Assembly: GCA_045863395.1 (NCBI GenBank)
Contig: BTVJ01000022.1
Location: forward strand, 35,443 to 99,442
Direction: 5' to 3'
Origin: Myxococcales bacterium
GTDB lineage: Bacteria > Myxococcota_A > UBA9042 > JABWCM01 > BTVJ01
DNA length: 64,000 nucleotides
Shown here: positions 1 to 46,204 of the stretch, one piece after another
How the letters are laid out: each line of letters begins with the position of its first letter
How positions within the stretch are numbered: the stretch's first letter is position 1
Program-made: the position numbers and the translations under genes
The notes under the pieces: generated by a model
What the model was told of the DNA's origin: nothing
Database searches by the model: none
What the model saw: the letters and a program-made list of their open reading frames with translations, nothing else

Positions 1-3000
1 TTGCCCGCGTCGTACACATAGCCGCCGTAGGTGGCCGTGTAGATGGAGTTGCCGTCGTTGGTGGTCACGATGCCCGACGCGGCCGTCCCATCCGGGTTGA
101 GTCGGCGCATGTACCCCGCCCCGCCCGCGATGACCCACTCGCCGCCCGTCCACAGGACCCCGTAGATCGGCTGGCCGCCGAGCATGACCACCGGGCTCCC
201 AATGAACATGCCGTCGGTGCCCACGAACTGGATGTAGCCCGAGTCGCCGCCGACCAGCCACTGGGTGCCGTTCCAACCCACGGCGCGGATGGTGAAGTTG
301 AGCATTCCTGATTGGTAGGAGCCTACGGCGGCGCCGGACGCGTTGACACGGTGAACGCGCCCGGTGTCGCCCACGACCAGCCAGTGCACGCCGTTCCACG
401 CCGCCGCGCGGCCGACCGCGCCACCGAGCAGCGTGACGTTGGAGCCGAGCTGGGTGCCGGAGGCGTTGAGCGTGCGGAACACGCCGCCAGAACCGCCTAC
501 GAGCCAGCTCGTGCCGTTCCAGACGGACACATACAGGGTGGGCGATGAGGTGACGACGGTCGTGCCCTGCTGGACGTAGCTCCCGTTGAGGAACGCGTAG
601 CGCCCGGAGTCACCCGCCGTCAGGACCTTTGTGCCGTCGTGGCCGGCGGAGCGGACGCCGTAGCCCCCCGACAGGGTGTAGGAGCTCGACGTGTACGGGT
701 AGACGACCTTGCCCGCAGTGTCGTAGGCCTCGTGGTAGGCGCTGCCGACGACCACGTAGTTCGTGCCGTCGAAGGTGCTCCCCTCGATGGTGCTCCCCCC
801 CATTCCCACGGCGTAAGGCACGATGGGGACGCCCGTGGAGGTCACGAGCTGCACGCGGCCGCTGGCCCCGCCGACGAGGAAGTTGGTCCCGTTCCAGGCG
901 GCCGCGTAGGCGTGGGACCCGAGGATCGACGTGCGGATGGTCAAGCTCGACGCCCCCGACTTGGGGACATAGGCGGTCTGGCCACTGTTACCGACGAGGA
1001 GCACGCCGTTTGGCGACGCAACCGAGCCTTGCCACGTGGTCCCCTGGATCTTGTACGTGGCGGCCGCGACGCTGCCGTCTGCCGAGACGAGCTGCCACCG
1101 CCCGCTGTCTCCCGCGACGATGAAGGACTGGCCGCTCCAGGCCACGGTGCGGGCGATGCCGCCGGCCAGGGCCGGCTCCCAATCGCTGGCGAGGGCCCCA
1201 TCCGCGGCAATGAGCTGCACGCGGCCCACGTCACCTGCCACGAGCCAGTGAGTGCCGCTCCAGGCAGCCCCGTAGATGGTGGAGCCGCCGATGGCCGTGA
1301 TCTGGGAGCCGCTGGCGGTCCCCGTCAGGGTCAGACGCTGCGCGCGCCCGGAGGCGCCCGCCGCGAGGATCTGCCCGTCGCCCATGGACAGCGCCTGGAC
1401 GGCGGACCCTTGGAGGATCTGCGCGTAGCTACCGATCGCCACGCCGTCCGCGCCGATGCGCTGGATGCGCCCGCTGGCGCCGCCGACGAGCCACGCGTCG
1501 CCGGTCCACACGATGGCGTTGACCGTCGACCCGCCCAGGAGCTGCACGTTGCTCCCGAAGGGCACTCCGTTGGTGCCGACGCGCTGCACGTAGCCGCCTC
1601 CACCACCGACGAGCGTCACGCCGTCGGGGTTCGCGGCCGCCGCCACGACGGTGTTGGTGCCGATGGCGGTCTGGGTGGACACGGGCGGCACGCTGAGTGT
1701 GGCCGGGACGATGGCCACGGTGCCCCCCTGGCCAGCGACGACGATGTTCGCGCACCCAGGGGTGGCCGGGCCGTCCATGCACTGGCCGTCGAGGCAGGCG
1801 TCGTGGTCATTGCACGGCGCGCCGTCGGAGCAGGGGGTCCCGTTCGCGACCGCAGCGCCGGCGAGGCATGCGCCCTCGGAGCAGAGGCCGTCGCCCGAGC
1901 AGGGGTTGCCGTCGTCGCAGGCAGCCTCGTTGGGCGTGCTGTGACAGCCGAGGAGCTCGTCGCACGCGTCGTCGGTGCAGGGGTTGCCGTCGTCGCAGTC
2001 AGTGGGCTCGTCGCCGGCGCAGAGGCCTTCCACGCAGACGTCGCCCGTAGTGCAGGGGTTGCTGTCGTCACAGCCCTCGGTGTTGACCGTGTAGGAGCAG
2101 GCCCCGGTCTCCGAGTCGCAGTGGTCGTCGGTGCAGGGATCCTGGTCGCTGCAGTCCACGCTGGGAGCTGCGACGCACACTCCGGCCGCGCAGGAGCCGT
2201 CGCCGGTGCAAGCGTCGCCGTCGTCGCAGACCAGGCCGTCCGCCCGCGCCGTCCAGGCCTTGCGGTCGGCTTGCGGGTCGCACACCTGGCAGGGGTCCTC
2301 GGGGTTCTCTGCGCCCTCGGCCACGCACGCGCCACCGACCGCACAGCCGCCACCGCAGTCACAGGTGCCCTCGTCGCAGAAGGCCGTGGGGCACTCCAGG
2401 TCACTTCCGCAGGGAGAGCCAGCGACCAGCGCCGCGCCGACCATGCTGCTCGTGTAGACCGCGAGGCCGTCGAGCACGGTGAACGTGGGCCCCACCGGAG
2501 CGCCGCTCGCGTCGACCTTCTGCAGGAGACCCTGGTCCCCAGCGATCACCCAGTTGGAGCCGGTCCACGCGATGCTGCGGATCGACTTGCCGCCCAGAGC
2601 GACCACCGGCTTGCCCACGGGCTTGCCGAGGGCATCGATTCGCTGGATGTAGCCGCTGTCGCCGCCGATGAGCCAGTCAGTGCCGCTCCAAGACGCGGCG
2701 AGGGCCGTCAGGTTGAACAGCGCCGACTGGTAGGCTCCCTGGCTGGTGCCCGACTTGCTCACGCGCTGCACGCGGCCCAGGTCGCCGACCACGAGCCAGC
2801 CGTTGCCCCCGGCGGAGATGGCGCGCACGACCTGGCCGCCCAGGGTCGTGAGGCCGTTGGACGCCGTAGCGCCGGTCTCGTCGATGACCCGCACGTAGCC
2901 GGCGGCACCGCCGACGAGCCAGCTCGACCCGCCCCACGCCGCCGCGAGCAGGTTGTTTCCGGCGCCAACGTTGGAGTCCGCTCCCGGAGCGCCCGCGGCG

Positions 3001-6000
3001 CTGATCAGCGAGAGTCGTCCGGCGTCGCCCACGGCGATCCAGGCCTTCTTGCCCCAGGCGACCGCGCGCACGGCCTGCGAGCCCAGGAATGGGACGAGAG
3101 TCCCCGTCTGAGGCGCCAGCGACTGGTCGATCACCTGAACGAGCGTGCCGCCGCCCAAGAGCCATCCACTGCCGCTCCAGGCGGCGCTGACGATGGCCGT
3201 GCCACCGAGCAGGGTCTGGAACGGTCGCACCAGCGTCGCGTCGAAGGCCACGCGCTGAATTCGGCCGCTCTGCCCCACGACCAGCCAGTTGACGCCGGCG
3301 TTGGTGACCGCGTAGGCCTCCAGGCCCTGCAGCGCGGTGCCGGTCTTGATGGTGCTTCCGGTGGGAGACAGGCGCGTGTAGGCGCCGGCGTTGCCCACCG
3401 CCAGCCAGCCGTCGGTGGTCGGCGCCACGCCGTAGACCGTGTGGCCCAAGGTCTGGAAGGTGCCGGCGATGGGCGCGCCCGCGGCGTCCACCGCCTGGAT
3501 ACGGCTTGCGTCTCCGCCCACCAGGAAGCGGGTGCCGTCCCAAGCGGCCGCGCGGATCAGTGATCCGGCGATCGCGGCCTGGTAGCCACCCGCGAGCGTG
3601 CCGTCAGGGTTGACGAGCTGGACGCGGCCCGAGGCACCACCGACCAGCCAGTGGGTGCCGCTCCATGCCACGGCAAGAATCTGGACTCCGTCGATGGCAG
3701 TGACGTGCGTGCCAATGGGGACGCCGTCGGCGCCCACGACCTGAATGCGGCCGGTGTCGCCGCCGACGAGCCACGCGTCGGCCCCCCATGCCATGGCGTT
3801 GATGCGGGTGCCGCCAAGGGCCGTGGCGTAGGAGCCCACCGGCACCCCATCGGCGCCGACCAGGTGGACGCGCCCCGAGTCTCCGCCGACCAGCCACTCG
3901 GTGCCGCTCCAGGCGGCCGCCCGAGCGATGCTCCCGCCATTGACCACGCCCACGGCAGAGCTCGTCAGGCCGTCGGCGCCGACCCGCTGCACCTTGCCTG
4001 CCGCGCCCACGACCAGGCTGTCCGTCCCGTTCCAGGACGTGGCAAGCGCATCGCTGCCCCCAAGGGTGGTCTGGAAGGACAGCGGGGGAACGGTCAGGTC
4101 AGACCCGACCAACATGGCGGCGCCGGAGGCCCCGGCCACCAGGAGCTGGGACGGGCACGAGCCGCCTCCGACATAGATGTGTCCGCAGGATCCGGTCTGC
4201 TGGTCGCAGGAGTCGACGGTGCACTCAGAGCCGTCGCCGCAGTCCTTGGGCGCTCCCGAGGCGCAGAGCCCCTGCTGGCAGGTGTCGCCGACGGTGCACA
4301 GGTCACCGTCCTCGCACGATGCGCCCGCCGCCAGGGGCGACCAGTCGCTGGTGTTCTGATCCGGGTCACACACGAGGCAGGGGTTGTCGGGGTTGGTCTG
4401 GCCCCGGACGAGCTGCGAGCCACCGATGCTGCAGTCCGCGAGACAATAGCCGGCGACGCAGGCGCCCGAGGTGCAGTCCGTGCCCAGGGTGCATGCGGAG
4501 CCTGGGGTCAGCGAGGGACCACCGTAGGAGACGTAGCGGACCGTCGTGCCATTGAGCACGGTGACCACGGCGCCAACGGGCGCGCCCGAAGGCAAGAGCC
4601 GCTGCATGGTGCCGCCATTGCCACCGACCACCCAGTCCGTGCCGGTCCAGGCAGCGCCATAGATGTGGTTGCCGGCGAGGACCGTCTGCTCCGCACCGGC
4701 TACTGCGCCTGCTGCGTCGATCAGGCGCACCTTGCCGCTGTCGCCAGCGACGAGCCACCGGTTGCCGTCCCACGCGATGGCGCGGATGGGGGTCGACAGC
4801 GCGGTGATGTAGCTCCCGATGGCCCCGCCTGCCGCATCGACGAGCTGGGTGCGACCGCTGTCTCCACCGGTGATCCACAAGGCGCCGTTGGAAGACACGG
4901 CTCGCACCGCGACTCCACCGAGTACGGTGCTCGACGCGGTGAGGGTTCCGTTCTTGTCGATGCGGCGGCACAGGCCCGAGTCTCCGCAGGAGAGCCAGTT
5001 GGTGCCGTTCCAGGCTGCCGCCTTCATGTTCGGCGTGCTCCCGCTGAGCACCTTGGTCCCACCCGTGGCGTTCCCATTGGGCAGGAAGAGGTTGTACCGG
5101 CCGCTGTCGCCGCTCACCAGCCAGTGGGCGCCGTTCCACGAGGCCGTGTAGACGCCGTAGCTGGAGAGTGCCGTGCCAACCGCAGAGAGGGAGTTCCCCG
5201 CGACACCGATCACGTGGTCGTAGATGTACCCGACCAGCATCCAACGGTCGCCGGCCCAGCCGCCACCGTAGGTCTGGTTGCCACTGAGGGCCGTGCCATA
5301 AGGGAGGACCGGGACGCCGTTCGAAGCCACCGGCTGCACTCGCCCGTAGTAGCCGGAGACCAAGTAGCGGGTGCCCGTCCACGTCACGCCCATGATCTGG
5401 GCACCGTCGAGGGCGGTGCGCAGGCTCCCGCCGGACGTGCCATTGGGGTTGAGCAGGCGGTTGTACCCACTGTTGCCGCCGGCCAGGCACTTCGTCCCGT
5501 TGCACACCACGGCCTGCCAGTGGCTACCGCCGGAGTGGAACAGGGTGTCGGGATTGACGAGACCGTCAGCGCCGACGATCTGGCTGTAGGAGTTGTTGCC
5601 GACCACCAGGTAGCCCTGGCCGGTCCAGGCCACCGCGTTGGCGGTCTGGCCGCCCAGGCCGTGCTGCGCCGCGGCCAGCGGCGCGCCGTTGGGGCCGAGG
5701 AGGCGCAACCAACCCGAGTCGCCTACCACCAGGAAGTTGGTGCCGTCCGTGGCGATGCCGCGGATGGTGACGCCGCTCATCACCGTGGTCGGCGACGACA
5801 CGGGCACGCCGTAGGCGTCGAGCAGGCAGACGAGGCCAGCGCCGCCGCCGACCAGGTAGTTGGTGCCGTTCCAGGCGCCCGCCAGGATCTGGTTGCTGCT
5901 GAGCACGTTGGACGCCGCCGCGCCAATCAGGCTCCCGTCGGCGGCAACCCGCCGGATTCGCCCCGAGTCGCCTCCGACGAGCCACTCCTCGCCGTTGGTG

Positions 6001-9000
6001 ATCACCATGTAATCGGCGCTGCCCTGGAGCGGCTGCACGCGAGTGCCCACGGGGACGCCGTCGTCGTCCACCTGCTGCATCCAGGAGTCGCCGATCACCA
6101 GAGATCCGGTCGGGCCGGCCGCGATGCCATAGGAGTAGGCCCCGCTCATCGCCACCTGGATGGAGGGCTTGGGGACACTCAGGTCCGATGGCACGATCTG
6201 GAAGCGGCCGCTGTCTCCCGACGCGATGAGCTTGTTGCACGCCGGGACGACGCCACCGCCGGTGCATGTGCCCGCCACGCAGCGATCACCGATGGTGCAT
6301 GCCTCGCCGTCGCTGCACGCCGCCCCGTCAGCGAGGACGGTGCCCGCACAGGAGCCGGCGCCGTCGCAGGTGTCTCCGTCGGTGCAGGGGTTGCCGTCAC
6401 TGCAGGACGCGTAGGACGGGATGTTCAGGCACCCGTCCTCGGGTGTGCAGGAGTCGTCGGTGCACGGGTTGCTGTCATTGCACGTCACGGCCGCGCCGGA
6501 GCAGACCATGTTGGCGCAGGCATCGCCCGATGTGCATGGGTTGCCATCGTTGCAGGAGCCCGCCGCGGCCGCGTAGACGCAGGCGCCGGTGCCCGGATCG
6601 CAGGAGTCCGCCGTGCACGGGTTTCCATCGTCGCAGGACACGATGGCGGGCTCACTGCACGTGCCGCCCGAGCAGACGCCGGCCTCGACACAGGGGGACC
6701 CGTCTGAGCAGCTCGTCCCATCCACCACGTCGCTCCAGCCCATGGGGTTGACGGCCTCGTTGCAAACCTCGCACGGGTTCTGGGGGTTCGGCGTGCCGTC
6801 GGCCACGCAGACACCGTCGGCGGCGCACCCGGACTCGCAGGCGCAGGTGCCCGCGACGCACTGATGGGTCGCACAGTCGGCGTGGGTGACGCACGCGCCA
6901 GCGGCGGGGATCGTCGGTCCGGCGGCGCTCAGCGCGTAGATGTGGAGATCGTCCAAGGCAATCTTGACCGCACCGATGGGCGTCAGGTTCGAGCTGACGC
7001 GCCGCACGCGCCCGGAGTCTCCAGCGACGATCCACTCGGTGCCCGTCCACGCGATGGCGCGAATCGGCGTTCCGAGCACCGTCACGGGGTAGCCCTGCGG
7101 CACACCGTCCGCGTCCACGAGCTGCACCTGCCCGGTGCCGAGGCCACCCACGAGCACGCGCTCGCCGTCGGTCGCGGCCGCGTAGATGGGCTGGTTGAGC
7201 ACCGCGGACTTGTGCGTGCCGACCGGGACGCCGTTTGCGCCGACGATCTGAACGCGCCCGAGATCGCCCGCCACCAGGAAGCGACCCTTGATGGGCACAC
7301 AGACTCGAGCGTTGGCGCCGCCGAGCGCCGTCTCATTGGCGCCCGGGGTGCTCGTATCGGGCAGGATGCGCCGCACGAGGCCGCTCGCCCCGACGGCGAG
7401 ATGGGTCGTCCCGTTCCAGCAGGCGCCATACATGGTCGGGCTCGAGGAGATCACCTTGGTCGCCTGGATGGCGCCGTCCTTGTTGACGAAGGCGTAGCGG
7501 CCGCTGTCGCCGACGACGAGCCAGCGGTTGCCTTCGAACGAGAGGCCCTGCACCCCATAGCCGCCGGAGAGCGTATAGACGCCGCTCGTCACCGTGGACC
7601 CGGCGGTGCCGTTTTTGTTGACCACCTGCGTGTAGGCGCTGCCGCCGACGAGCCAGCGGTCGCCGCCCCAGGACGCCACATTCACGTGGTTGCCGAGCAG
7701 GGTCGTGATGTAGGACACCTTGGGGATGCCGTTTGTGGCGACCGCCTGGACGCGCCCGCTGTCGCCGCCAACGAGCCAGCCGTTGCCCGTCCAGGCGATG
7801 CCCCGCACGGTGCTCCCGAGCAGCGCCTGGGCGACGCCCCCCTGGAGCCCGCCGGACGCGTTGGAGCGCCGCACGTAGCCGGACGAACCGCCCAGCAGCA
7901 AGCTGGACCCGTTGGTGGCCACCGTGTACCAGGTCGCGCCGCCGCTGGGGTTGTACGAGTCCTGGATGATGGTCCCGTCGGTCGCGATCAGGTGGGACCG
8001 CTGGGATGCACCCACCACCAGGAAGCCGGTGCCGGTCCAGACGACGTCGTTGATGGCCGCAGCAACGAGGGCGGTGCGCCACTTGGGGTTCAGGGTCCCG
8101 TCGGCGGCCACGAGCTGGACGCGGCCAGCATCACCACCGACCAGCCACGTCCCGCCGCTCCAGGCGACGCCATAGACTGCGGCGCCGCTCAAGGCCGTCA
8201 CGTAGCTGCCGATGGCGGTGCCGTCTGCTGCCACGCGCTGCACACGGCCGCTGTCACCGACCACGAGGTACTCGATGCCGTTCCACGCGAGGGCGCGGAC
8301 GACGCTGCCGCCGAGCATCGTCGCGTAGCTCCCGATGGGGACGCCATCGGCGCCGACCCGCTGCACGCGACCTCCATTGCCACCTACCAGCCACTCCGTG
8401 CCGTTCCACGCGGCGTCATAGATGGCGTAGCCCGCAAGGGCCGTTGCGTAGCTGTTCTGGGCGACCCCCTGCTCATTGGAGAGCTGCACGCGACCGGAGT
8501 CTCCGGCCACCAGATGGTGGGGGCTGCCCGCAGAGACGGCGTAGATGGTGCTGCCACCGATCAGCGTCTGCACAGACTTGGGCGCGAGGTTGAGGGCGGG
8601 ATCGATGAGCCCCGCCGCGCCGTTCTGGCCCGCAGCCAGCAAGGACGGGCACCCGAGCAGGCCGCTGCCCGTGCCGCACGAGCCGGCCACGCAGGCCCCG
8701 TCGCCGGTGCAGGCGTCCCCGTCGTCGCAGGCGGCTCCGTCCGCGACGGGCACGCCGCCGCAGACGCCCGTGGGACCGCACACGTCGTCCTCGGTGCAGG
8801 CCTTGCCGTCATCGCAGGGGGCCTCGGTCGAGGTGAAGATGCACGCGGCGAGTGGCTCGGTGCCTTGCCCGGTCGGCGTCGACGGCTTGCGGCTCCGCAC
8901 GCCCACGCTCATGAGCTTGTTGGCGACGTTGGTGTGGCCGTTCTCGTTGAACGCCACGCCGTTGTAGCTGCCGCCGTCGTCTCCGTCCATGCGGAAGTAG

Positions 9001-11873
9001 GCGCTGCTGGTGTCGCCGCACCAGGAGTTGCACTGCTTCCAACACCCACCCGTGTAGCCGCTGACCATCAGGCCGGTCCACATCCACGAGGAGCCGCAGA
9101 CGTTCACCTGGTACTTGATGCCCGCGCTGGCGACGCCGTTGGCGGTCCACTCGCCGAGCACCTCGCCGCTCGAGAAGTAGCCAGCCTCGGTCATGCGGAA
9201 GGTGGCCCCGCCGTCCCGGGTGAACCACGCCTTCTGGCTGTTGTCGTGCCGGACGTACAGGATCTGGGCGATGTCCACGTTCCTGCAGTCGGTGCGGTAG
9301 CCATCCTGTCCGTAGGGCTTCGCGGCGTCGTAGGTGACCTCCGACTGGATCTGGACCTCCAGGTCGTCCGAGTAGCACATGGTCCAGCCGCCGCCGTCCG
9401 TCTCCATGTCGCAGTAGACTCGGTATGCGTCAGCGGGGTCCCCACCGTTCGGGTCGATCCAATACTCGCCGCTCGCCGTGACCCCCTTCTCGTAGGCGTC
9501 CACGCAGTCCGTGTAGTAGTTGCCGACGATGCCGCAGGTGTCGACGGTGCACGCGTTGTTGTCGTTGCACACCTTGGGCGTGCCCAGGCACGTGCCTGCC
9601 GCGCACTTGTCGTTGATCGTGCACCCGTCCCCGTCGGAGCACGCCTTCGTGTTGTTGGTGTACGCGCAGTCGCCGGTCCCGGCCACGCACGCGTCGTCCG
9701 TGCAGGGGTTCTGGTCGTCACAGTCCACCAGGGGCTGCGCGTCGCACACACCCGCCGTGCAGGTGCCAGGTCCCTCGCAGGCGTCGTCCGCCCCACAGAC
9801 CGTTCCGTCGGTAGCCGGGGTCCACCCGAGCTCGTTCGAGAGCGGATCGCACACGAGACATGGGTTGGACGGGCTGGGATCGCCCGGCGCGACGCAGGCC
9901 CCGTCGATGAGGCACGCGCCATCGCAGGAGCAGCGACCGCCGAGGCACGACGCGGTGTCGCAGTCCAGGTTCTTTGCGCAGATCTGCGACTCGGTGAGCC
10001 ACGGTCCCGCGTACACGATGTCCATGACGGTGAGGTCGTCGAGCACCCGCTTGGTCGTGCTGGCAGCCGTCCCGTTCGCGTTGAGGCGCTGGATGCGCCC
10101 GCCGTCCCCTGCGATGACCCACTCAAGGCCCGTCCACACGATGCCTCGAATGGTGACCCCCTCCAACGCCTGGAAAGGCTCGCCGATCACCTGGCCGTCG
10201 AGGCCGATTCGGTGCAGGAAGCCCGCCCATCCTCCGACCAGGAACTCGGTGCCGTTGAAGGCTGCGGCGAGGATCTGACCGCCGGACATGGCGCCCTTCC
10301 AGCCGCCTATGGCGGTGAGGTTGTTGTCGAACTGCTGGTAGCGGCCGTAATCGCCGAAGACCCAGATGGACTGTCCCGTGGCCACGACCTTCTGGATGTT
10401 GCTGCCCCCGATGCCGGTCTGCGACACCTGCGTCGTGTTGCCGTCGGAGCTGATCAGCCGGATTGCGCCGCTTGCTCCGGCGGTCACCCAGCGCGTCCCC
10501 GTCCATGCGACGCTGTATTGAGTCGGGCTCCCGGTAGATACCTTGGTGGCGCCGACAGTGCCATTTGACTGGATGAGAGCGTAGCGGCCGCTGTCACCCG
10601 CCACCAGGAACCGATCCCCGTCGGAAGCAACGGCGCGCGCTCCATACCCACCGGAGAGCACATAGGTGCTCCCGTTGTAGGCGGTGAGCTGCTGCCCCGT
10701 GGGGCTGATGAGCTGCCCATAAGCCGAGCCGACGATGTAGAAGTTCGTGCCGTTCCAGGCAACGCGCTCGATCTGGTTGGTCCCGAACACCGATGTGTAA
10801 GGCGTGATGGGGACGGAGTTGGTTCCAATCCGCTGTACCCGGCCGCTGCCGCCGCCATACAGCCAGGACGTGCCCAGGAACGTGGTGGCGTAGGCAGTCT
10901 GGTTGTCCAGCGCCTGGCGCACCCCGGGAACCGAGGAGAGGTTGGACGGGAGGATCAGATACTGGCCGGACGCGCCCACCAGCATCCACTTGCCGTCGCC
11001 GGGGGCGATGTCGTACCAGGTGGGGCCGCTGATCTTGTACGTGGCGGCGTCGGGGATGCCGCTGTTGTCGATGATCTGGAAGCGCCCGCTGACGCCGGCG
11101 ACGATGAACCGCGTGCCGTCCCACGAGACCGCCTCGATCTGGCCACCAGCCAGCGCGGGCGTGTAGGTGCCCACGGGCGCCCCGTCGGCGTCGACGAGCT
11201 GGACGCGGCCGCTGTCTCCGCCAGCGAGCCAGTGGGTGCCGTTCCAAGCAACGCCCATGATGCGCGCGCCGCCCAGCGCAATGCCATAGGTGCCCACCAA
11301 GGTGCCATCCGAGGCCACGCGCTGTACACGCCCCGCGTCGCCCGCGACGAGCCACACATCGCCGTTCCAAGAGATGCTCTGGACCGCGTTGCCCTGGATC
11401 ACCGTCTGGTAGGTGCCGAGGGTGGCGCCAGCCCCATCGACCATCTGGATGCGGCCGCTGTCGCTGCCGACGAGCCAGTTCGTACCATTCCAGGAGATGG
11501 CCCGCACGGCCGAGCCCCCGTTGACCGTCTTGACGGTCCCCGTGGGCATGCCTTGCCCATCGACGAGCTGGACCCGCCCTGCCCCTCCACCGACGAGGGA
11601 GTAGGTGCCATTCCAGCTCGCGGCGAAGAGGGTCTGGCCCTCGATTGCCGACTGGATGGACCGCGGTGGCACGTTCAGGTCCGGTGAGACCGACTGCACG
11701 GCGCCGCTCTGACCGACGGCCATGAGGTTCGAGTCCCCGAAGCCGCTGAGGAGCGTCCACGCGCCGCCCAGCAGCACCGCGCTGGCCAGGACGCGCCCCA
11801 GCCTTCCCACTCCGTTCTTGGTTTCCATGTGTCGTTCCGTGCCCCCGCGGGGGGCCTGCGTGTCCATGTTCAT
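1..11873 (-). CDS. Giant secreted repeat protein (>3940 aa, C-terminus beyond left edge): >=5 modules of 14 WNGTxWLVxGDSGRVQ repeats (predicted beta-propellers), Cys-rich linkers, one fibrinogen C-terminal-like domain
   Basis: Manual translation of the minus frame is open from ATG 11873 (ATGA overlap with the upstream stop; alternative ATGs 11867 and 11828) to position 3. N-terminus METKNGVGRLGRVLASAVLLGGAWTLLSG is signal-peptide-like. Absent from the ORF track because it has no stop in the window. SGEYWIDPNGG...VYCDMETDGGGWT at ~9380-9480. Confidence 0.9.
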   Translation of the reverse strand, partial: MNMDTQAPRGGTERHMETKNGVGRLGRVLASAVLLGGAWTLLSGFGDSNLMAVGQSGAVQSVSPDLNVPPRSIQSAIEGQTLFAASWNGTYSLVGGGAGRVQLVDGQGMPTGTVKTVNGGSAVRAISWNGTNWLVGSDSGRIQMVDGAGATLGTYQTVIQGNAVQSISWNGDVWLVAGDAGRVQRVASDGTLVGTYGIALGGARIMGVAWNGTHWLAGGDSGRVQLVDADGAPVGTYTPALAGGQIEAVSWDGTRFIVAGVSGRFQIIDNSGIPDAATYKISGPTWYDIAPGDGKWMLVGASGQYLILPSNLSSVPGVRQALDNQTAYATTFLGTSWLYGGGSGRVQRIGTNSVPITPYTSVFGTNQIERVAWNGTNFYIVGSAYGQLISPTGQQLTAYNGSTYVLSGGYGARAVASDGDRFLVAGDSGRYALIQSNGTVGATKVSTGSPTQYSVAWTGTRWVTAGASGAIRLISSDGNTTQVSQTGIGGSNIQKVVATGQSIWVFGDYGRYQQFDNNLTAIGGWKGAMSGGQILAAAFNGTEFLVGGWAGFLHRIGLDGQVIGEPFQALEGVTIRGIVWTGLEWVIAGDGGRIQRLNANGTAASTTKRVLDDLTVMDIVYAGPWLTESQICAKNLDCDTASCLGGRCSCDGACLIDGACVAPGDPSPSNPCLVCDPLSNELGWTPATDGTVCGADDACEGPGTCTAGVCDAQPLVDCDDQNPCTDDACVAGTGDCAYTNNTKACSDGDGCTINDKCAAGTCLGTPKVCNDNNACTVDTCGIVGNYYTDCVDAYEKGVTASGEYWIDPNGGDPADAYRVYCDMETDGGGWTMCYSDDLEVQIQSEVTYDAAKPYGQDGYRTDCRNVDIAQILYVRHDNSQKAWFTRDGGATFRMTEAGYFSSGEVLGEWTANGVASAGIKYQVNVCGSSWMWTGLMVSGYTGGCWKQCNSWCGDTSSAYFRMDGDDGGSYNGVAFNENGHTNVANKLMSVGVRSRKPSTPTGQGTEPLAACIFTSTEAPCDDGKACTEDDVCGPTGVCGGVPVADGAACDDGDACTGDGACVAGSCGTGSGLLGCPSLLAAGQNGAAGLIDPALNLAPKSVQTLIGGSTIYAVSAGSPHHLVAGDSGRVQLSNEQGVAQNSYATALAGYAIYDAAWNGTEWLVGGNGGRVQRVGADGVPIGSYATMLGGSVVRALAWNGIEYLVVGDSGRVQRVAADGTAIGSYVTALSGAAVYGVAWSGGTWLVGGDAGRVQLVAADGTLNPKWRTALVAAAINDVVWTGTGFLVVGASQRSHLIATDGTIIQDSYNPSGGATWYTVATNGSSLLLGGSSGYVRRSNASGGLQGGVAQALLGSTVRGIAWTGNGWLVGGDSGRVQAVATNGIPKVSYITTLLGNHVNVASWGGDRWLVGGSAYTQVVNKNGTAGSTVTSGVYTLSGGYGVQGLSFEGNRWLVVGDSGRYAFVNKDGAIQATKVISSSPTMYGACWNGTTHLAVGASGLVRRILPDTSTPGANETALGGANARVCVPIKGRFLVAGDLGRVQIVGANGVPVGTHKSAVLNQPIYAAATDGERVLVGGLGTGQVQLVDADGVPQGYPVTVLGTPIRAIAWTGTEWIVAGDSGRVRRVSSNLTPIGAVKIALDDLHIYALSAAGPTIPAAGACVTHADCATHQCVAGTCACESGCAADGVCVADGTPNPQNPCEVCNEAVNPMGWSDVVDGTSCSDGSPCVEAGVCSGGTCSEPAIVSCDDGNPCTADSCDPGTGACVYAAAAGSCNDGNPCTSGDACANMVCSGAAVTCNDSNPCTDDSCTPEDGCLNIPSYASCSDGNPCTDGDTCDGAGSCAGTVLADGAACSDGEACTIGDRCVAGTCTGGGVVPACNKLIASGDSGRFQIVPSDLSVPKPSIQVAMSGAYSYGIAAGPTGSLVIGDSWMQQVDDDGVPVGTRVQPLQGSADYMVITNGEEWLVGGDSGRIRRVAADGSLIGAAASNVLSSNQILAGAWNGTNYLVGGGAGLVCLLDAYGVPVSSPTTVMSGVTIRGIATDGTNFLVVGDSGWLRLLGPNGAPLAAAQHGLGGQTANAVAWTGQGYLVVGNNSYSQIVGADGLVNPDTLFHSGGSHWQAVVCNGTKCLAGGNSGYNRLLNPNGTSGGSLRTALDGAQIMGVTWTGTRYLVSGYYGRVQPVASNGVPVLPYGTALSGNQTYGGGWAGDRWMLVGYIYDHVIGVAGNSLSAVGTALSSYGVYTASWNGAHWLVSGDSGRYNLFLPNGNATGGTKVLSGSTPNMKAAAWNGTNWLSCGDSGLCRRIDKNGTLTASSTVLGGVAVRAVSSNGALWITGGDSGRTQLVDAAGGAIGSYITALSTPIRAIAWDGNRWLVAGDSGKVRLIDAAGAVAGAEQTVLAGNHIYGAAWTGTDWVVGGNGGTMQRLLPSGAPVGAVVTVLNGTTVRYVSYGGPSLTPGSACTLGTDCTSGACVAGYCLADCSIGGSQLVRGQTNPDNPCLVCDPDQNTSDWSPLAAGASCEDGDLCTVGDTCQQGLCASGAPKDCGDGSECTVDSCDQQTGSCGHIYVGGGSCPSQLLVAGASGAAMLVGSDLTVPPLSFQTTLGGSDALATSWNGTDSLVVGAAGKVQRVGADGLTSSAVGVVNGGSIARAAAWSGTEWLVGGDSGRVHLVGADGVPVGSYATALGGTRINAMAWGADAWLVGGDTGRIQVVGADGVPIGTHVTAIDGVQILAVAWSGTHWLVGGASGRVQLVNPDGTLAGGYQAAIAGSLIRAAAWDGTRFLVGGDASRIQAVDAAGAPIAGTFQTLGHTVYGVAPTTDGWLAVGNAGAYTRLSPTGSTIKTGTALQGLEAYAVTNAGVNWLVVGQSGRIQRVAFDATLVRPFQTLLGGTAIVSAAWSGSGWLLGGGTLVQVIDQSLAPQTGTLVPFLGSQAVRAVAWGKKAWIAVGDAGRLSLISAAGAPGADSNVGAGNNLLAAAWGGSSWLVGGAAGYVRVIDETGATASNGLTTLGGQVVRAISAGGNGWLVVGDLGRVQRVSKSGTSQGAYQSALFNLTALAASWSGTDWLIGGDSGYIQRIDALGKPVGKPVVALGGKSIRSIAWTGSNWVIAGDQGLLQKVDASGAPVGPTFTVLDGLAVYTSSMVGAALVAGSPCGSDLECPTAFCDEGTCDCGGGCAVGGACVAEGAENPEDPCQVCDPQADRKAWTARADGLVCDDGDACTGDGSCAAGVCVAAPSVDCSDQDPCTDDHCDSETGACSYTVNTEGCDDSNPCTTGDVCVEGLCAGDEPTDCDDGNPCTDDACDELLGCHSTPNEAACDDGNPCSGDGLCSEGACLAGAAVANGTPCSDGAPCNDHDACLDGQCMDGPATPGCANIVVAGQGGTVAIVPATLSVPPVSTQTAIGTNTVVAAAANPDGVTLVGGGGGYVQRVGTNGVPFGSNVQLLGGSTVNAIVWTGDAWLVGGASGRIQRIGADGVAIGSYAQILQGSAVQALSMGDGQILAAGASGRAQRLTLTGTASGSQITAIGGSTIYGAAWSGTHWLVAGDVGRVQLIAADGALASDWEPALAGGIARTVAWSGQSFIVAGDSGRWQLVSADGSVAAATYKIQGTTWQGSVASPNGVLLVGNSGQTAYVPKSGASSLTIRTSILGSHAYAAAWNGTNFLVGGASGRVQLVTSTGVPIVPYAVGMGGSTIEGSTFDGTNYVVVGSAYHEAYDTAGKVVYPYTSSSYTLSGGYGVRSAGHDGTKVLTAGDSGRYAFLNGSYVQQGTTVVTSSPTLYVSVWNGTSWLVGGSGGVFRTLNASGTQLGSNVTLLGGAVGRAAAWNGVHWLVVGDTGRVHRVNASGAAVGSYQSGMLNFTIRAVGWNGTQWLVGGDSGYIQFVGTDGMFIGSPVVMLGGQPIYGVLWTGGEWVIAGGAGYMRRLNPDGTAASGIVTTNDGNSIYTATYGGYVYDAG

Positions 11874-14800
11874 TGGCCGGCGACCGCGTCAGCCTGCGCC
11901 TTGCTCCATGCCTGAGCGTGGATCATCGTGATGATCCCCTCCTCGTAGCCGGAGCCCGTGATCCATGCAGCGTCGGGGTGGTAGAGCCCGTAACGGTCGG
12001 CCAGGTAGACCTCGACCGAGGCCCTGTCCTCGTCGCCCAGGGCCCTGTCGTAGATCAGCAGCTCCGCGAGATCGCCCGTCAGGTGCCCCGCGACTCCGGC
12101 GCCTACCCGCGATCCGTCGCGCCAGGCCAGGGGCGGCAGGGTCGCCGACCCCGTCGCGCCGTCGAGGCCGTGCTGCCGGAGGGCCACCGTCCCATCGATG
12201 GCGTGAACCACCGAGAGCACCCGCCAGGAGGTCCCGCCAAGCAGGGCGGCGCCGTCGGCAGCCACGTTGCCACTGCGATAGCGGAGCGTGGTCGTCGTCC
12301 CCTTGCGGGACAGGGAGATCGGCGCGGCACCGCCGCTCGTCGCCAGCTCCACGATGTGACCCCACCGGTCACCGGCGGCCGGTCGCAGCACGACGAAAGC
12401 GGAGACTCCCCGATCGAAGTCCACGAAGCCGGGCGGCAGCTCCAGGGCATCGTCCAAGCCATCGAAGCGCACCGCGGGGGCGCCGCCGATGCCCACCTCG
12501 CTCGGGAGCACGAGGGGCTGGGCCCCCTCCACCGTCTGGCTCGCGTCGGCCGGCGAGGGCACGGGGGCGAGATCCGCCCACAGGGCCACGGCCCCGTCGG
12601 GCCCCGCGACCACCTGGTCGCCGCGCAGCCAGACCGATACGCCGGCGCCGGGGATCCCCGCGTCCGACGCGACTCCGCCAAACGCCACGAAGGCGTCGGC
12701 CTCGGCCTGGGACCAGCGCTCCGCATGAATCCTGGCAACGACGTCCTCCGCGTACCCGTCGACCCACGTGGCCGCCGGGTGGTAGAGGCCGTGCCGGTCG
12801 GCGAGCCAGGCGGCGACGGCCTGGTGCTCCGCAGCGGAGAGGGCGCGGGTGTAGACCAGCAGCTCGGACAGCTCTCCGACGAAGGGGGGGCCGCCAATGG
12901 CGTTCTCGGTGCGCAGGACGGCGACCGGGAGCGGCATGGCGCTCGCCTTGAGCACCTGCCCGTCGCGGGACAGGGTGACGCCCGACGCACCGTGGACCGC
13001 GGAGAGCACCTGCCAGCGACCAGGGAGCAGGCCCTTCGGGCCCGTGGCGAAGGCGGCCCCAGCGCCGTAGCGGACCGAGCCCGTCGCGCCGTCCGCGCCC
13101 AGGGACACCATCTGCTGCCCCGCCGCGTTGCCGAGGCGGAGAAGGGGCGCGCCAGGCGCCGGGCGGGCCGGGCGGGCGACGGTGAAGACCGTGACGCCCT
13201 GGTCGAGGCCCGCGAAACCGGCAGGGAGGGGCAGCACGTCGTCCACGCCGTCGAAGGACACGGCGGGGTGGTCGCCCCCGAGCAGCACGGGGCGCCGCGA
13301 AGAGTCAGCCTGAGCCGCGTCCATGCCGGCTGGAGAGCGGTCCTCCCAGCCCTGGACGGCGCCCCCGGCCGCATCCACGCCGGTGGTGGCGTCCAGCCAC
13401 AGGGCGAGCCCAGGCGCGGGGATTGGCAGGTCCGGGTTCTGCGCCATGAACTCCCCGAGCGCCACCGTCTCGGCCTTGCCGAGCCCGTAGGTGTGCGCCG
13501 CGTCCACCGCCTCGGCGGCGAGGTCCTGGTCAAGCAGCCACGTAGCGTCCGGGTGGTACACTCCGTGCCGGTCCGCAAGGTAGACCTCCACCGCGTGGCG
13601 CTCGTCGGCGCCCAGGGCCCGATCCCAGACGAGCAGCTCGGCGATGTCCCCCGCGAAGGCCGGGAGCCCCGCGACCGGCGACAGGGCGATGCGGCTGCCG
13701 TCTCGCACGGCCGCCCTCGGCACCGCCACGGCGCCCGAGGCCGTGACCTCGCCGCCACGGACGATCTGGGTCTGGCCGTCCGGCTGCTGGATGGCGCCGA
13801 GCAGCCGCAGCTCAGGCACGGCGAGCCCCCCGTCGCCAGTGAGGGCCGTATCGCCGGACCGGAGCACGACGCCAGGGCCGGTCGCATCTCGCGTCAGGGC
13901 CAGCCTGCTCGCGGCGGTCGCCCCCGTCAGGTCGAGCAGCGTCCCCCAGCGGGCCGGCCCCGAAGCGCGCGCAACGGCGTAGGCGGTGAAGCCGCCGTCG
14001 AGGTGGGCCATGCCGGCGGGCAGGCGCAGCCCGTCGTTGAGGCCATCGAAGCGGACGACGGAGGTGCCCCCCTGGGAGGCCGCGGTCGGCCGAGCCGTCG
14101 CGTCCGTCTGGGTGGCGTCATCGGCCCAGGGGTCGGCCCCCTGGTCCGCCCAGGCGGCAACGACGCCTTCGGTCGCCGTCACCCCCTCGTCGGCGCGCAG
14201 CCACAGCCGCAGCGCGATCCCGGGGACTGGGGAGGCCGGGTGGGCCGCCGTCCAGGCGACCAGCGCGTCGGCCTGCGCCGCGCTCCAGCGGCGGGCGTGG
14301 ATGGTCGCCTCCACCGTGGGCGGGTAGGCGGCGATCCACGACGCGCTCGGGTGGTAGAGCCCGTGGCGCTCGGCCAGGAAGAGCTCCACGTCGACGCGCT
14401 CCGCCTCGGTCAGCGCCCGGGTGTAGACCAGCAGCTCGGCGACCGCGCCGCCCAGTGGAGCTCCCGCCCCGCCGCAGATCAGGTTGGCCGTGCGGGTAGC
14501 CACGCTTGGGAGCCGGACGTTGCCGATGCCCGTGACGGCGCCATCACGCCGGAGCGTCGCGGCCTCGCCCGGCACATGGACCACGGACAGGGCCTGGAGC
14601 TCCAGCAGGCGGGCGCCATGAGAGGCCTCCGCCATACGCTTTGCCACCTGATAGCGGAGGCCATCCGCGCTGCCCGCGCCCCCCAGGGTCACGCGGTCGG
14701 CCCCGGCGCCGCCCAGATCCAGGAGCAGGCCGGCGCCGGCGTCCCGGTCTGGTCTGACCACCGCGAACACCGTCAGCCCTTGTGAGAAGTCCGCGTAGCC

Positions 14801-17800
14801 GCTGCCAAGGACGAGCGCGTCGTCCTGGCCGTCGCAGCGCACCAGCGCCGCGCCGTAGACGGGGTCTGCGATGAGCTGCGGCTGGAGCCCCGCCGTCCCC
14901 TGCGCCGCGCCCGCGCCTTGCGCCGAGCGGTCGGCCCAGGCCTGCACGCGGCCCTCGGCGTCCGTCGTGACGCCCTGGGAGGCATCGAGCCACAGAGCGA
15001 GCCCCGCGAGGAGCGGCGCCGGCTTCGACACGTCGACGGCGATGCTCACCTGGTCGTTGCCCGGCTGCGCGTCCTGGAATCCAGGCCCCAGCGCGAGGGT
15101 CACCGTCCAGGCGCCAGCTCGCGGTGGCGTCCACGTCGCCTTCAGGTGCAGGGTGCCGTTCAGGTAGAACCAGGTGGTCGGCGCGACGACGTGCGTCCCG
15201 AGGCCGTCGGTGGCGCGCCAGGTGACCGGCAGGCCGTAGTAGGAGTCGTTGCCGCCGACCGCGCCCGTCAGGGTGACGGTGCCGCCCACCTCCACGTGGT
15301 TCGGGCTCGCCATGACCGACGCCGCGAGGACCGCCGCATCGAACGGGTCACCGCTCAAGCCGCCGGCCCCCAGCGCCCCGAGGGGCGGGCCGCCCAGGGG
15401 CACCTGATCCGTGGTGCCCGTGCCCGTGACGCCACCGCCGGTGCCGCTCCCCACCGGGCCCACGCCGGGGACTGGCGTCCCCGGGTGCACGACCCATGGC
15501 GCCGAGGCAGCGCCGTCCATGAACGACACGACGGCGGGGGCGCCGTTCGGCCCGGTGTAGGGCGGCGCCGCCACCATGGGCGCCGGCGAGCCAGCGCCGC
15601 AGTCCACGAGCACCACCTGCCGCTTCGTCACGTCCTGCTCATCGCCCGCCGAAGCCGTGACCGTCAGGTCCAGCAAGGCCCCCACCTGCTGGGGCATGGG
15701 AACGTCCAGGCGCCAGGCGCCATTGCGATCCGCGCGCCCCTCGCCGCTGGACAGGGGGGCCCCGGCCGACGCCAGGGACCAGGAGACCTGCGCCCCCTCC
15801 GCCGCCACGTCGTGGCACCACTGCGCGCCGTCGGACAGGCCCCATGACGAGCGGCCACCCGCCGACAGCGTTGCGCCAGCGCACACCTTGCGCGCCTCGG
15901 CGGCGGCGGTGCCCAACGACAGCCACTCGGGCGACGCAGCGCCGAGCAGCACGCCCACGCTGGCGCCATTGTTGAGCTCGTTGGGCTCGGGCAGCTCCCC
16001 GGCCGCATCGACGGTCGCCACCAGCGCGAAGGCGCCGAGGGCCAGCGCAGAGTCCGTGAGATCAAGCCCGAGGTGAAGAGGGGTCACGCCCGCGTCCAGG
16101 GCCGTCTCGACCGTCGCGACCACCTTGTCGACGCCGCAGCCCACCGCGCGCACGTCGACCCGCACCGGGGCCACCGTCGGCGCCGTGCCCGTGTTCTCCA
16201 CCGTCACGATGGCCGCGACCGGCACGCCCGCCGCGTCGCGCTCGAGCGTGAGGCCGGAGACCAGCAGGTCGTCCGCCCCGATGACGAGCACGGCGGCGGT
16301 GCCGATGACGGAGTCGCCGAGCTTGTCCGTTGCGCGGAACAGGAAGGAGTCGGGGCCCATGTACCCCGGGTCCGGGACGTAGACGAGCTGCTGGCCGGCG
16401 GTGACGAAGGCGTCGCCGTGCGCCGGCGCCAGCTCGATGGTGAACCAGTGGGCGTCCCCCTCGTCCGCGTCGACCACGGTCGGGGTGACGGGCGCGCTCG
16501 GCGTGTCCCGCTGGGTCACGATCTCGGCGCTGGCGGAGCTGGGCGCCTCGTTGGGCGTATCCGCGGGAACGACCTCGATGATCGCGCTACCCGAGGTGCT
16601 CGCCTTGCCGTCCGAAGCGTCGAAGTAGAGGGTATAGACGCCGAGCTGGTTCTCGCCGGGGGTCCAGGTCAGGACGGCCGTCCCGTTGCCCGCGTCTGCG
16701 AAGGACGCGCCCGCGGGCAGCGGCGTCGCCGCGATGGCGGGCGTCGTGCCGTCCGGGTCGGTGGCCGTGACCACGTACTCCAGGGTCTCGCCCACGCGGA
16801 TGCTGCGGCTCGGGGTCGGGCCGAGGACCGGAGCCGCGTTGTCGGCCACCACCTGGCCCATGGTCAGGGTGTAGGACAGCCCGAGCGGGTTGCCCGTGTC
16901 GAACACGTTTATCTTATATAGATAGGACTGGCTGAGCTTCTGCCACTCGCGGGACGCCCACGCGTTGCGGGAGGACAGCACCTTCCCGTCGCTGCGCACG
17001 GCCTTGACGACGTCCTGGGTGCCAAAGAAGGGGTCCGCGAGCTTCAGGTACGAGAAGCCGGCCGTCGGAGGCACGGTGACCGTCACCGCGCCACCGGCGA
17101 GGGAGATGGCAGAGGCGCTCGACACGTCGAGGACCGCCGTGTCCACCAGCTCAGACTCGTAGACCTTCAGCGCCGTGCCGTCCTGCGCCAGGAAGTCGAC
17201 GATGGCGTCCCGCCCGGGCAGGTCGACCTGGATGTCCCGGACCAGGGTGTGGGTGTTGACCTCCTCGAGCAGCGAGGTCAGCGCCCCGCCCAGGTCGTCC
17301 GAGTGGGTGAAGGTGGCGCTGAACTCGATGAACTTGCCCTGGAGCGTGGCGGTCATGATCCACTTGGCGATGCGCGCCTCGTTGGCGGGCACGGTCCCGA
17401 AGTCCACGAGCAGGCTCGGCGTGGACGGCTTGCCATGCACCTCGCTGCCGATGATCTGGAACGCGATGAGCAGCCCCAGCTCGTTCTCGACGATCTTGGG
17501 CTGGCTGGACTCGATGGCCAGCTTGTTCGCCGCGCCATAGCCCTTGTTGGCGACACGCACGCCCAGAGGGAACGGCTCGGGGGGCTCGATGGGGTCGGTG
17601 TACGGGTTGTCGCCATGCACCTCGTAGGGCAGGAAGTAGTCCAGGAAGAGCTTGGGCATGGGCTTGACGTAGATGCTGTCCGGGACGACCGCCACTTCGC
17701 TGAGCTCCCCGCCGATGCGATAGCTCACGTTGGCGCCCACGAGGTAGAGGGTGCCCTCCTTGGCGGGCCCCGCCGCCCCCGGCGCCGGGATGATCAGCCA

Positions 17801-18258: not shown

Positions 18259-19809
18259 TCACGGCCCGCAAGCCGCGCCACAGAGGCCCTCGGCCTCGGC
18301 GGCGCACAGCGCGTCCCACTCGCCGATGCAGCACCAGGGGTCGGCGCCACATACACAGTCCTGGATCGTGGAGTCGGCGCAGCCGAGCCCACCATGATCG
18401 TCGCAGCAGCTCCCCTCGCAGGGCCCGCAGTCGGCGCCACAAGAGACGCAGTCCTCGTCCCCGTCACACGCGCCATCTCCGCACGACGGCGGGCAGACCC
18501 CACAGTCGGCGGCGCAGCTCGCGCAGGACTCCCCAAGGGTGCAGCTCCCGTCCCCGCAGACGTCGGTGCAGGTGAGGCCGCATCCGATGGCCTCCTCGAC
18601 GCAGAGGACGTCCCACGCCGTGGCGCAGCAGAAGGGATCGATGGAGCAGACGCAGCCGGCGACGCTGCCGTCCCCGCAGCCCGGCTCCTCGGCCGGCGCG
18701 CAGCAGTCGCCGGTGCAGGGGCCGCAGTCCGCTGGGCAGCCCTGGCAGGTCTCCGCCCCGCCGCAGGTACCGTCCCCGCAGCCGGCGCAGGCGCCGCAGT
18801 CGGACGGGCACGTGTCGCAACCCTCGCTGCCGTTGCACGCGCCGTCGCCGCACGCCGGGCAGGCTCCGCAGTCGGCAGGGCAGAGGGCGCAGGTCTCGCC
18901 GCCCTCGCAGGCCCCGTCGCCGCACTCGGGGCCGCAGCCGCCACACGCCACGGCCTCGTCGACGCACGCTGCGTCCCAGGCGATGGAGCAGCAGAAGCCG
19001 TCGGCGGCGCAGACGCAGGCAGTGATGTCCGGGTCGTCGCAGCCGGGGGGCCCCTCCGCGCAGCAGTCGCCCTCGCAGTCGCCACAATCCGCAGGGCAGG
19101 AGAGGCAGCCCTCGTCCAGGTCGCACTGGCCGTCGCCGCAGCCGGGGCAGAGACCGCAGTCCTGGGGACAGGTGCCGCAGGTCTCGCCAGGCACGCATGC
19201 GCCGTCACCACAAAGGCCCGGGCAGTCCGCGCCGCAGAACAGGGCGGCCTGCTCGACGCACAGGGCGTCCCAGCCGGTCGTACAGCAGAAGGCGTCCGTC
19301 GCGCATACGCAGTCGGCCACCGCCGCGTCGTTGCAGGAGGGGCGGTCGTGGCCCTCGCAGCAGCCCTCGGTGCAGTCGACGGTCGGGTCCTTGGGCTTGC
19401 AGTCGTCGACGTCAGGTACGCCGTCGTCGTCGTCGTCGGGGTCACAGGCGTCGATGGTGCCGTCGCCGTCGTTGTCGAGCGCTTGGGAGAAGGGCTCCTT
19501 CAAGGCGAGCAGGATCAGCGCCTGGACGTCGATGACATTGCGGACGCCGTCGCAGTTGAGGTCCGCCTCCGCCTGGGTCACCTTGAGGCACGCGGGCGTG
19601 GGGGTCCCGCCGGCGTTGGAGAGGACGAGCAGGATCATGCACTGCACGTCCACGACGTTGGTCAGCTCGTCGTCGTTGATGTCGCCCGGAGGCACCAGGA
19701 CCGCCGAGGACAGCGGTCGCGGCACAAGGACGAGCAGGGCGAACAGTAGCAGGAACGCGCACGTGCCGCGTGAGGCTCGGGGCGCGCCCTGGGGGAGCGG
19801 TAAGCTCAT
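18259..19809 (-). CDS. Secreted dockerin-like / TSP3-like Ca-binding, Cys-rich repeat protein
   Basis: Paired GDINDDELTNVVDVQ / ADLNCDGVRNVIDVQ motifs; DNDGDGTIDACDPDDDDDGVPDVDDC; CGDGxC repeats and 4 CCxxxWDxxC repeats; hydrophobic N-terminus. Confidence 0.85.
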   Translation of the reverse strand: MSLPLPQGAPRASRGTCAFLLLFALLVLVPRPLSSAVLVPPGDINDDELTNVVDVQCMILLVLSNAGGTPTPACLKVTQAEADLNCDGVRNVIDVQALILLALKEPFSQALDNDGDGTIDACDPDDDDDGVPDVDDCKPKDPTVDCTEGCCEGHDRPSCNDAAVADCVCATDAFCCTTGWDALCVEQAALFCGADCPGLCGDGACVPGETCGTCPQDCGLCPGCGDGQCDLDEGCLSCPADCGDCEGDCCAEGPPGCDDPDITACVCAADGFCCSIAWDAACVDEAVACGGCGPECGDGACEGGETCALCPADCGACPACGDGACNGSEGCDTCPSDCGACAGCGDGTCGGAETCQGCPADCGPCTGDCCAPAEEPGCGDGSVAGCVCSIDPFCCATAWDVLCVEEAIGCGLTCTDVCGDGSCTLGESCASCAADCGVCPPSCGDGACDGDEDCVSCGADCGPCEGSCCDDHGGLGCADSTIQDCVCGADPWCCIGEWDALCAAEAEGLCGAACGP

Positions 19810-31062: not shown

Positions 31063-31221
31063 AGGGTGCCTCCCGGGCGAGGAGGCCCGACTCGTGCTGA
31101 GGGGGCCTACCCGCCGTGCATGTCTCCCGCCCGCTTCGAGTACCGACAAGTGGCGAGACCGTAGCACGGACGGGGGGGCTGCGCAACCGGCGTGCCGTTC
31201 ACACCCAATTGCTGCGCCGGA

Positions 31222-45067: not shown

Positions 45068-46204
<1,137 letters not shown>

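Follow-up and report, generated by a model that had tools for sequence, protein, structure and literature searches.

Which protein is encoded by the long minus-strand frame at the left end of a 64,000-nucleotide stretch of contig BTVJ01000022.1 from a Myxococcales assembly (GCA_045863395.1), and what could this protein do? An earlier note on the stretch (hereafter the window) had described in this frame five modules of 14 repeats joined by Cys-rich linkers, and had interpreted them as double 7-bladed beta-propellers of a multivalent adhesin or lectin. We followed the frame beyond the window and identified a gene for a giant protein of 8,987 amino acids (aa), here called the giant, in which the modules are followed by a stalk, a conserved segment called the chassis, a predicted YD/Rhs shell and a C-terminal domain (CT). 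Based on the domain order, the intact residues of the Rhs core and the varied CTs of related proteins, we consider that the giant is, on balance, probably a secreted contact-dependent toxin carrier with exchangeable target-recognition propeller modules.

Extent and continuity of the giant gene

Re-translation of the minus strand detected no stop between window position 11873 and base 3, giving 3,957 aa and upholding the earlier claim of an uninterrupted frame of more than 3,900 aa. The open reading frame (ORF) extends 15 kb beyond the left edge of the window to a stop at G000:C22:20354, where G000 is this genome and C22 this contig; the window holds 44% of the protein (~919 kDa), and 5,030 residues lie further left. 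Third codon positions have a GC content (GC3) of 0.90, and no open frame in 200 shuffles exceeded 626 aa, both in agreement with a real coding frame. Translation may start at M1, in an ATGA overlap with the preceding gene, or at M16, and the leader is likely, as judged by eye from hydropathy, to be a Sec signal peptide. The genome (71% GC, 8.8 Mb) contains TIGR02232 repeats and the source names of close homologues fit a myxobacterial host, which we regard as likely.

That the assembly fused repeats or unrelated genes is barely credible and has been largely refuted. This explanation draws on the fact that no single public contig spans the whole of locus L001, the contig check being limited to residues 1 to ~6,605. 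Within these residues, contigs of four public runs covered all 30 bins; among 40 listed substitutions (295 more lie beyond these), 32 were synonymous and none gave a stop, and the six indels formed three compensating pairs. The five modules are just 36–42% identical to one another. In addition, a 5,420-aa protein from a genome of another family in the same order (G001) is collinear with the giant over 3,760 aa at 46% identity, and the passage from stalk to Rhs region is unbroken within single ORFs of L053, L057, L112, contig C10 of the same genome and G331. The stretch was present in 20 of the 24 listed runs, from seven studies with bioreactor, sludge, wastewater or aquatic labels, and one of these 20 runs may be the source of the assembled DNA. 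Seven RNA-library runs contain the stretch; contigs cannot show transcription.

Propeller modules and their relatives

A hidden Markov model (HMM) of the single repeat, run over the whole giant, detected 70 repeats, exactly 14 in each module and none elsewhere, with inner propeller repeats of 39–43 aa. In 40 of the 70 cases, a repeat was closest to its counterpart at the same position of another module, compared with approximately five expected by chance, supporting the earlier proposal that the whole 14-mer was the duplicated unit. The position-specific quirks reported in the earlier note recurred in three to five of the modules: LxV/AP was found in all five modules, GDSGRY in four, and TW, GSAY and LSGGYG in three each. 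No further occurrence of the module was detected in the G000 genome. The modules contain 0–5 Cys each versus 16–42 per linker, the exact word CDDGNPCT occurring twice and the looser C.D.x.CT 15 times within the first 4,060 residues, and Pfam assigns the linker Cys repeats to Dicty_CTDC. The Cys-rich spacers described before were thus recovered, together with an overlooked fibrinogen-like domain in linker 1, which is 46% identical to a domain of the C10 paralogue described below.

An AlphaFold2 model of module 5 from a 31-row alignment (pLDDT 95.4, pTM 0.87) is nearly all beta, and was preferred to a single-sequence fold of module 1 (pLDDT 67), which was dropped. The top Foldseek matches of the model were tandem double propellers. 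Single 7-bladed structures aligned to it with Z 28–32.5 and rmsd 2.1–3 Å, mostly at residues 25–309, and the two best fold matches paired 273 and 267 residues over 4–581 and 3–581, respectively (Z 32.5 and 31.4; rmsd 2.2 and 2.1 Å). As these two matches span both chain ends, the second ring would be built from strands of both, the strand order being derived from the alignments and not read from coordinates. The module is predicted to comprise 14 four-stranded blades in two 7-bladed rings with both chain ends in one propeller, in line with the velcro closure proposed earlier. Such a module may form a closed clasp with adjacent termini, which would make the 14-mer the unit of duplication.

The predicted fold resembles known double propellers (2ymu, AIP1, Utp21 and beta'-COP; Foldseek E 5e-24 to 2ymu, VIA Z 31.2), but identity to them is at most 16% and the inter-propeller angle differs (whole-module rmsd at least ~9 Å). 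Unlike them, the giant's modules stand five in series and would be extracellular, and their WD40 matches in Pfam were all below the cut-off. The module gave no match in NCBIfam, none in Atlas at 0.9 and just three in the PDB by sequence (E 0.05–0.6); no lectin was present among these three matches at E≤1 or among the top 50 fold matches. It appears to be a surface-protein domain so far without a name.

A profile search of 1.84 billion proteins yielded 30 module matches at E≤1e-30. In 21 proteins taken from the top of the list (790–1,150 aa), a single module stands in front of Cys repeats, and most single-module proteins showed, by eye and by regular expression, a lipoprotein-like leader and a MYXO-CTERM-like tail. 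Single-module matches occurred in 16 of 401 genomes of the phylum, 13 of these among the 34 genomes of family f23. Those of ~850 aa (P0002, P0005–P0023; L143–L152) are candidate TraA-like receptors: the leader, distal globular domain, Cys repeats and sorting tail are as described for TraA (PMC3325183), but a double propeller stands in place of PA14, and the giant itself differs from TraA in having no MYXO-CTERM tail. Three proteins, P0001 (the top profile match), P0013 and P0025, have only the WNG-type repeat in common with the module, lack its 14-mer register and were left out.

The giant of G001 (L025:1288-17548) is counted together with locus L004, the only full-length match among 11 loci. 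In a quick module tree of 31 rows, in which the single-module rows include some flank, the modules of G000 and G001 paired 1–1 to 5–5 with SH-aLRT 95–98, indicating that the five-bead array is older than the split of the two genomes. The G001 protein ends after a domain that resembles, by eye, giant residues ~6,790–6,935, and has no Rhs end; a tblastn search past its stop found no match and no frameshifted continuation. In the G001 genome (92% complete), we detected two unrelated Rhs genes (23–25% identity) and no match to the chassis or to the partner gene described below. The presence of the modules without a toxin end suggests that the propellers have a use without toxin. Residues ~30–225 of this protein form an extra domain ahead of module 1, absent from the window protein and without a Pfam match. 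Another G001 gene, L030:4141-13713 (G001:C280), encodes a separate 3,191-aa Rhs protein with a signal peptide and, by eye, PPC-like repeats, a vWA-like domain and Ig repeats.

Rhs end, partner and gene set

Beyond module 5, the giant contains four beta domains of ~140 aa amid myxobacterial Cys repeats; these domains are presumably MAM-like. The FN3/Ig stalk is followed by ASH/choice-of-anchor-D-like Ig domains (below cut-off) and by CarboxypepD_reg, a transthyretin-like domain. The giant also matched RHS_repeat PF05593 (E 4.6e-65) and TIGR01643 (E 1.6e-43), both over the cut-off, and Rhs_assc_core TIGR03696 (E 5e-20; 71.7 bits versus a cut-off of 32.5), and its YD/RHS repeats are predicted to make a shell. 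The last 1,335 residues gave 24 matches in the PDB, the best being Rhs toxins (8h8a, E 7e-34). The autoprotease residues R8780, D8793 and P8812-x4-D8817-T-R-G8820 are intact, with T in place of the P of DPxG. The 13/24 spacing of R8780, D8793 and D8817 is that of the catalytic R2103, D2116 and D2140 given for BiTLP in PMC13018210. Pfam and NCBIfam scans of all three thirds of the giant detected no PAAR or VgrG family, and with a hydrophobic leader present, an Rhs effector delivered by a type VI secretion system was ruled out.

Among 17 Rhs ends of the family, the CTs are mostly unrelated, similarity linking only a trio, a pair and, weakly (E 0.006), a further pair. A Pfam scan of 13 proteins identified a full chassis bearing Ntox10, with Imm27 directly after it, in L057, PT-HINT with an LHH nuclease in L069 and Ntox50 in L117, while no Pfam family was matched by three further small genes downstream; L057 alone combines chassis, shell, toxin and immunity gene. 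CTs thus vary on a conserved scaffold across the family, a pattern that, judging from the sequences, corresponds to the polymorphic toxin trait. At L076:5998-8650, small genes come after the main Rhs gene, then an orphan module of Hint-toxin-like type and one more small gene, a layout resembling polymorphic toxin loci.

The partner gene that precedes the giant encodes a signal-peptide-like leader, a conserved N-domain, Ig-like domains and four LamG-like repeats. The N-domain has no Pfam or NCBIfam family and no solved relative by sequence; of 7,999 scored candidates, 977 are homologues at E≤1e-20, and the 120 listed are 52–64% identical, with Myxococcota, Desulfobacterales and gammaproteobacterial source names. 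When the N-domain was modelled together with chassis residues 7130–7470, ipSAE was 0.90 in three runs versus 0.00 for the best of three controls, the contacts agreed to at least 91% from run to run, and the partner pLDDT was 89. Of 157 solved complexes, 116 attained the docking mark, as did 2 of 215 mismatched pairs, rates that are only rough, own alignments having been used. Within the chassis segment, conservation is highest in the hairpin at 7350–7380 (mean identity 0.61 versus 0.37), to which the partner is predicted to bind by strand pairing. This pairing is supported by a natural fusion, a 1,796-aa frame in which the partner N-domain is fused to the transthyretin-like domain plus hairpin (G212:C14:64493-69880; L136).

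A second copy of the gene set on C10 (G000:C10:41284-69004; L035, L036) comprises a partner, a transglutaminase-like gene and an Rhs protein of ~6,900 aa with the same chassis, a related Cys-rich CT, a different front part and no propellers. Four small lipoprotein-like genes and then an ABC transporter follow this copy. On C22, neither a transglutaminase-like nor a rhodanese-like gene is adjacent, and the rhodanese-like gene of G000 lies on C4. In the 401 phylum genomes, the partner was present in seven and a full-length chassis match in six, all within those seven; seven further chassis matches (~65 aa, E 1e-5 to 1e-3) were weak and excluded from this count. The best 80 of 310 confirmed metagenome partner loci, many of them short, contained Rhs parts in 17, the chassis in seven, any giant part in 22, transglutaminase-like genes in 48, rhodanese-like genes in 30 and the propeller module in none. 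In a shell-less variant (G135:C78, G388:C32; L130-L131, L137), stalk and chassis end in a Hint-like domain, as seen by eye, whose tail is very short, and the genes downstream include partner and rhodanese-like ones; in G331:C285 the partner is fused ahead of the stalk. The giant is an Rhs-type protein of known kind, but its widespread gene set and its propeller module are apparently undescribed: we found no description in a literature search that covered chiefly open papers without supplements, so that an earlier listing is possible.

Proposed function and surroundings of the giant

As a toxin carrier, the giant could work as follows. Both giant and partner would be exported by the Sec pathway, as their leaders suggest, and the chassis hairpin would complete the partner N-domain, whereby the LamG/Ig arm of the partner would join the particle. 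With both ends in one propeller, each module would be a bead on a Cys-rich string, gained or lost whole. Propellers, fibrinogen-like, presumed MAM-like and LamG domains would provide multivalent binding, the five double propellers likely recognizing a receptor on the target-cell surface. At the far end, the Rhs shell likely self-cleaves and holds the CT as cargo, R8780, D8793 and D8817 presumably cutting after L8821, as their motif suggests. The Cys-rich, amphipathic-beta CT may then attack the target envelope, which is the weakest step of this scheme. An exchangeable payload is the best reading of the propellers, as C10 has the same partner, chassis and Rhs region but none of them, and G001 has all five without an Rhs end. 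The single-module surface proteins indirectly support a recognition role for the module, and to this extent the multivalent adhesin of the earlier note stands. As a stand-alone adhesin, or as the whole story, it does not: the far end of the giant is a YD/Rhs shell plus a CT predicted to be cleavable, and the giant is a member of a multi-gene family whose toxin tips are polymorphic.

Several observations weigh against a toxin carrier. The CT gave no match in Pfam, NCBIfam or the PDB, none above 0.90 in Atlas and none among 7,999 candidates of 315–2,000 aa, the last being weak evidence; its matches in two of the 401 phylum genomes were both already in the query alignment. Rather than being unique, it is conserved (31–39%) in four copies (C22, C10, L038 and G331:C710), in which Cys are conserved and hydrophobic strands alternate. 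Beside this group we saw no small cognate immunity gene: downstream lie a MYXO-CTERM-like gene lacking homologues in the searched sets (C22), small lipoprotein-like genes after a 375-base gap (C10) and a rhodanese-like gene (L038). With neither a database match nor a common downstream gene, this group is the main evidence against toxicity of the giant's CT. The C22 neighbour, for which the G000 genome and the fetched loci contained no homologue, is possibly a surface immunity or anchor protein. In addition, G001 keeps all five modules in orthologous order without a toxin end, G142 has the partner without a chassis match, and the top fold matches of the module are WD40-like scaffolds, not lectins. 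No hydropathy window above 1.9 indicated a membrane anchor or helix in the giant, by hydropathy only, and the docking score may reflect two halves of a split domain, which pass easily.

The giant might instead be a non-toxic adhesin for kin recognition or for floc or biofilm attachment, its Rhs shell and CT serving structure or signalling after a repurposing like that in animal teneurins. The retention of the CT with shared Cys positions and no common immunity gene, the G001 propellers without Rhs, the TraA-like layout of the single-module homologues and the labels of the runs that hold the stretch are all consistent with this explanation. We nevertheless consider it rather unlikely, as the autoprotease residues are intact, whereas mammalian teneurins lack the motif according to PMC13018210, and as a known toxin and immunity pair is found on the same chassis in relatives. 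Quite improbable, in our view, is that the propellers are spacers or matrix scaffolds and leave binding to the fibrinogen-like, MAM-like and LamG domains. The lack of a lectin match by sequence or in the top 50 fold matches fits such a role, as does the orthologous conservation, without hypervariation, of each module between two families. In the ~850-aa family, however, the module is the sole large globular domain before a Cys stalk and sorting tail, and the conserved aromatic quirks lie in loops that standard blade geometry would place on the top face.

The toxin-carrier reading places the giant near WapA-type proteins, with which it shares a YD shell, an Rhs core with PxxxxDxxG, family-wide variable CTs with immunity genes, and N-terminal binding repeats. 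WapA is likely Sec-exported and 2,200–3,600 aa long, as stated in PMC3967940. Compared with Rhs/WapA proteins, the giant is far longer, has a likely diderm host, a front part of ~7,660 aa and a dedicated partner with predicted docking by strand complementation; its family has accessory transglutaminase-like and rhodanese-like genes, and no immunity gene was seen for the giant's CT. Bacterial teneurin-like proteins (TLPs) are common in Myxococcota and, according to PMC13018210, resemble the giant in their variable N-terminal adhesion domains, transthyretin-like domain before the YD shell, Arg-Asp-Asp spacing and CT of ~15–17 kDa. In contrast to TLPs, the giant has no NHL propeller between transthyretin-like domain and shell: only ~320 residues (hairpin, Ig-like domain and Gly/Pro/Cys linker) separate the two, and residues 6606–8987 gave no NHL Pfam match. 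Its own propellers are 7+7-bladed and lie ~3,700 residues away. TLP identity was rejected, as the row of FN-plug, six-bladed NHL propeller and YD shell is absent and the BiTLP match is confined to the shell; the chassis and partner profiles gave no match to BiTLP chains. Streptomyces umbrella toxins (PMC13274773) are likewise secreted multi-protein particles that join propeller/LamG-type recognition to a polymorphic toxin, but in the giant the recognition modules are tandem in the toxin chain and the toxin would lie behind an Rhs shell. No ALF-repeat or inactive-trypsin Pfam match was detected in giant or partner, and this identity was also rejected. Altogether, the giant is an Rhs protein, probably WapA- or teneurin-like in its working, and not a TLP, PAAR effector or umbrella toxin, though its working logic resembles that of umbrella toxins.

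More tentatively, and with less than even confidence, we suggest a widespread, undescribed class of multi-protein toxin particles in diderm bacteria, with two arms snapped together via a split beta-domain, transglutaminase-like and rhodanese-like maturation, and toxins that can be exchanged, whether or not an Rhs shell is present. In the present genome, such a particle might comprise double-propeller receptors of a new family and a disulfide-rich, membrane-active CT of a new type. According to PMC13018210, it is an open question how Rhs toxins with a signal peptide reach their targets when no injection machine is involved. The family supplies small testable parts for this question: the ~30-residue hairpin and 410-aa partner domain, swappable recognition modules and swappable toxin tips. 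The host lives in wastewater sludge, where predation and cell contact shape the community. The features of the locus are collected in Table 1.

Table 1. Positions of the giant, its partner and neighbouring features (window coordinates unless a locus is named)
Feature	Position	Strand	Giant residues	Remarks
Window, whole stretch	G000:C22:35443-99442			
Giant ORF, N-terminal 3,957 aa	3..11873	-		Open frame, extending left of window to G000:C22:20352
Leader	11733..11873	-	1-47	Basic then hydrophobic stretch, without lipobox Cys
Module 1	11732-9999	-	48-625	14 repeats, predicted double 7-bladed beta-propeller
Linker 1	8646..9998	-		Cys-rich Dicty_CTDC-type repeats flanking fibrinogen-like domain
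Fibrinogen-like domain in linker 1	~9509-8784	-	~789-1030	YCDxxxxGGGW; Pfam/NCBIfam
Module 2	8645-6909	-	1077-1655	14 repeats
Linker 2	6237..6908	-		Cys-rich, 34 Cys
Module 3	6236-4509	-	1880-2455	14 repeats
Linker 3	4152..4508	-		Cys-rich, 16 Cys
Module 4	4151-2439	-	2575-3145	14 repeats
Linker 4	1752..2438	-		Cys-rich, 34 Cys
Module 5	1751-9	-	3375-3955	14 repeats, two predicted 7-bladed propellers
MAM-like (presumed)/Cys repeats			~3956-4945	
FN3/Ig stalk			~4946-6700	
Chassis			~6701-7470	Predicted docking hairpin 7350-7380
Gly/Pro/Cys linker				Between chassis and YD/Rhs shell
YD/Rhs shell (predicted)			~7666-8821	
CT			8822-8987	166 aa
Partner gene	11870..18124	-		~2,090 aa, start uncertain; ATGA overlap with giant
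Partner mature chain, predicted start	18082			
Partner N-domain	16853..18082	-		410 aa; residues 1-31 and 247-261 predicted to pair with hairpin 7350-7380
Partner LamG-like repeat starts	15001, 14212, 13408, 12640	-		
Downstream neighbour of giant	L002:3585-4652	-		~355 aa; leader, unique N-domain, acidic linker, MYXO-CTERM-like tail

Further right in the window, 18259-19695 (+), which has a dockerin-like start, and 20156-22090 (+) encode Cys-rich proteins that look secreted, and 23593-31167 (-) encodes a protein of ~2,450–2,520 aa. We take the genes at 45083-46948 (+) to be an arsenic-resistance-like cluster (ACR3, ArsC, ArsR), and those at 49473-55967 (-) are presumably cyanophycin synthetase/cyanophycinase-like. 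Other open frames of 3,700–6,800 codons, some of which may be antisense shadows, were observed on C70, C93, C11, C29 and C36 of the G000 genome.

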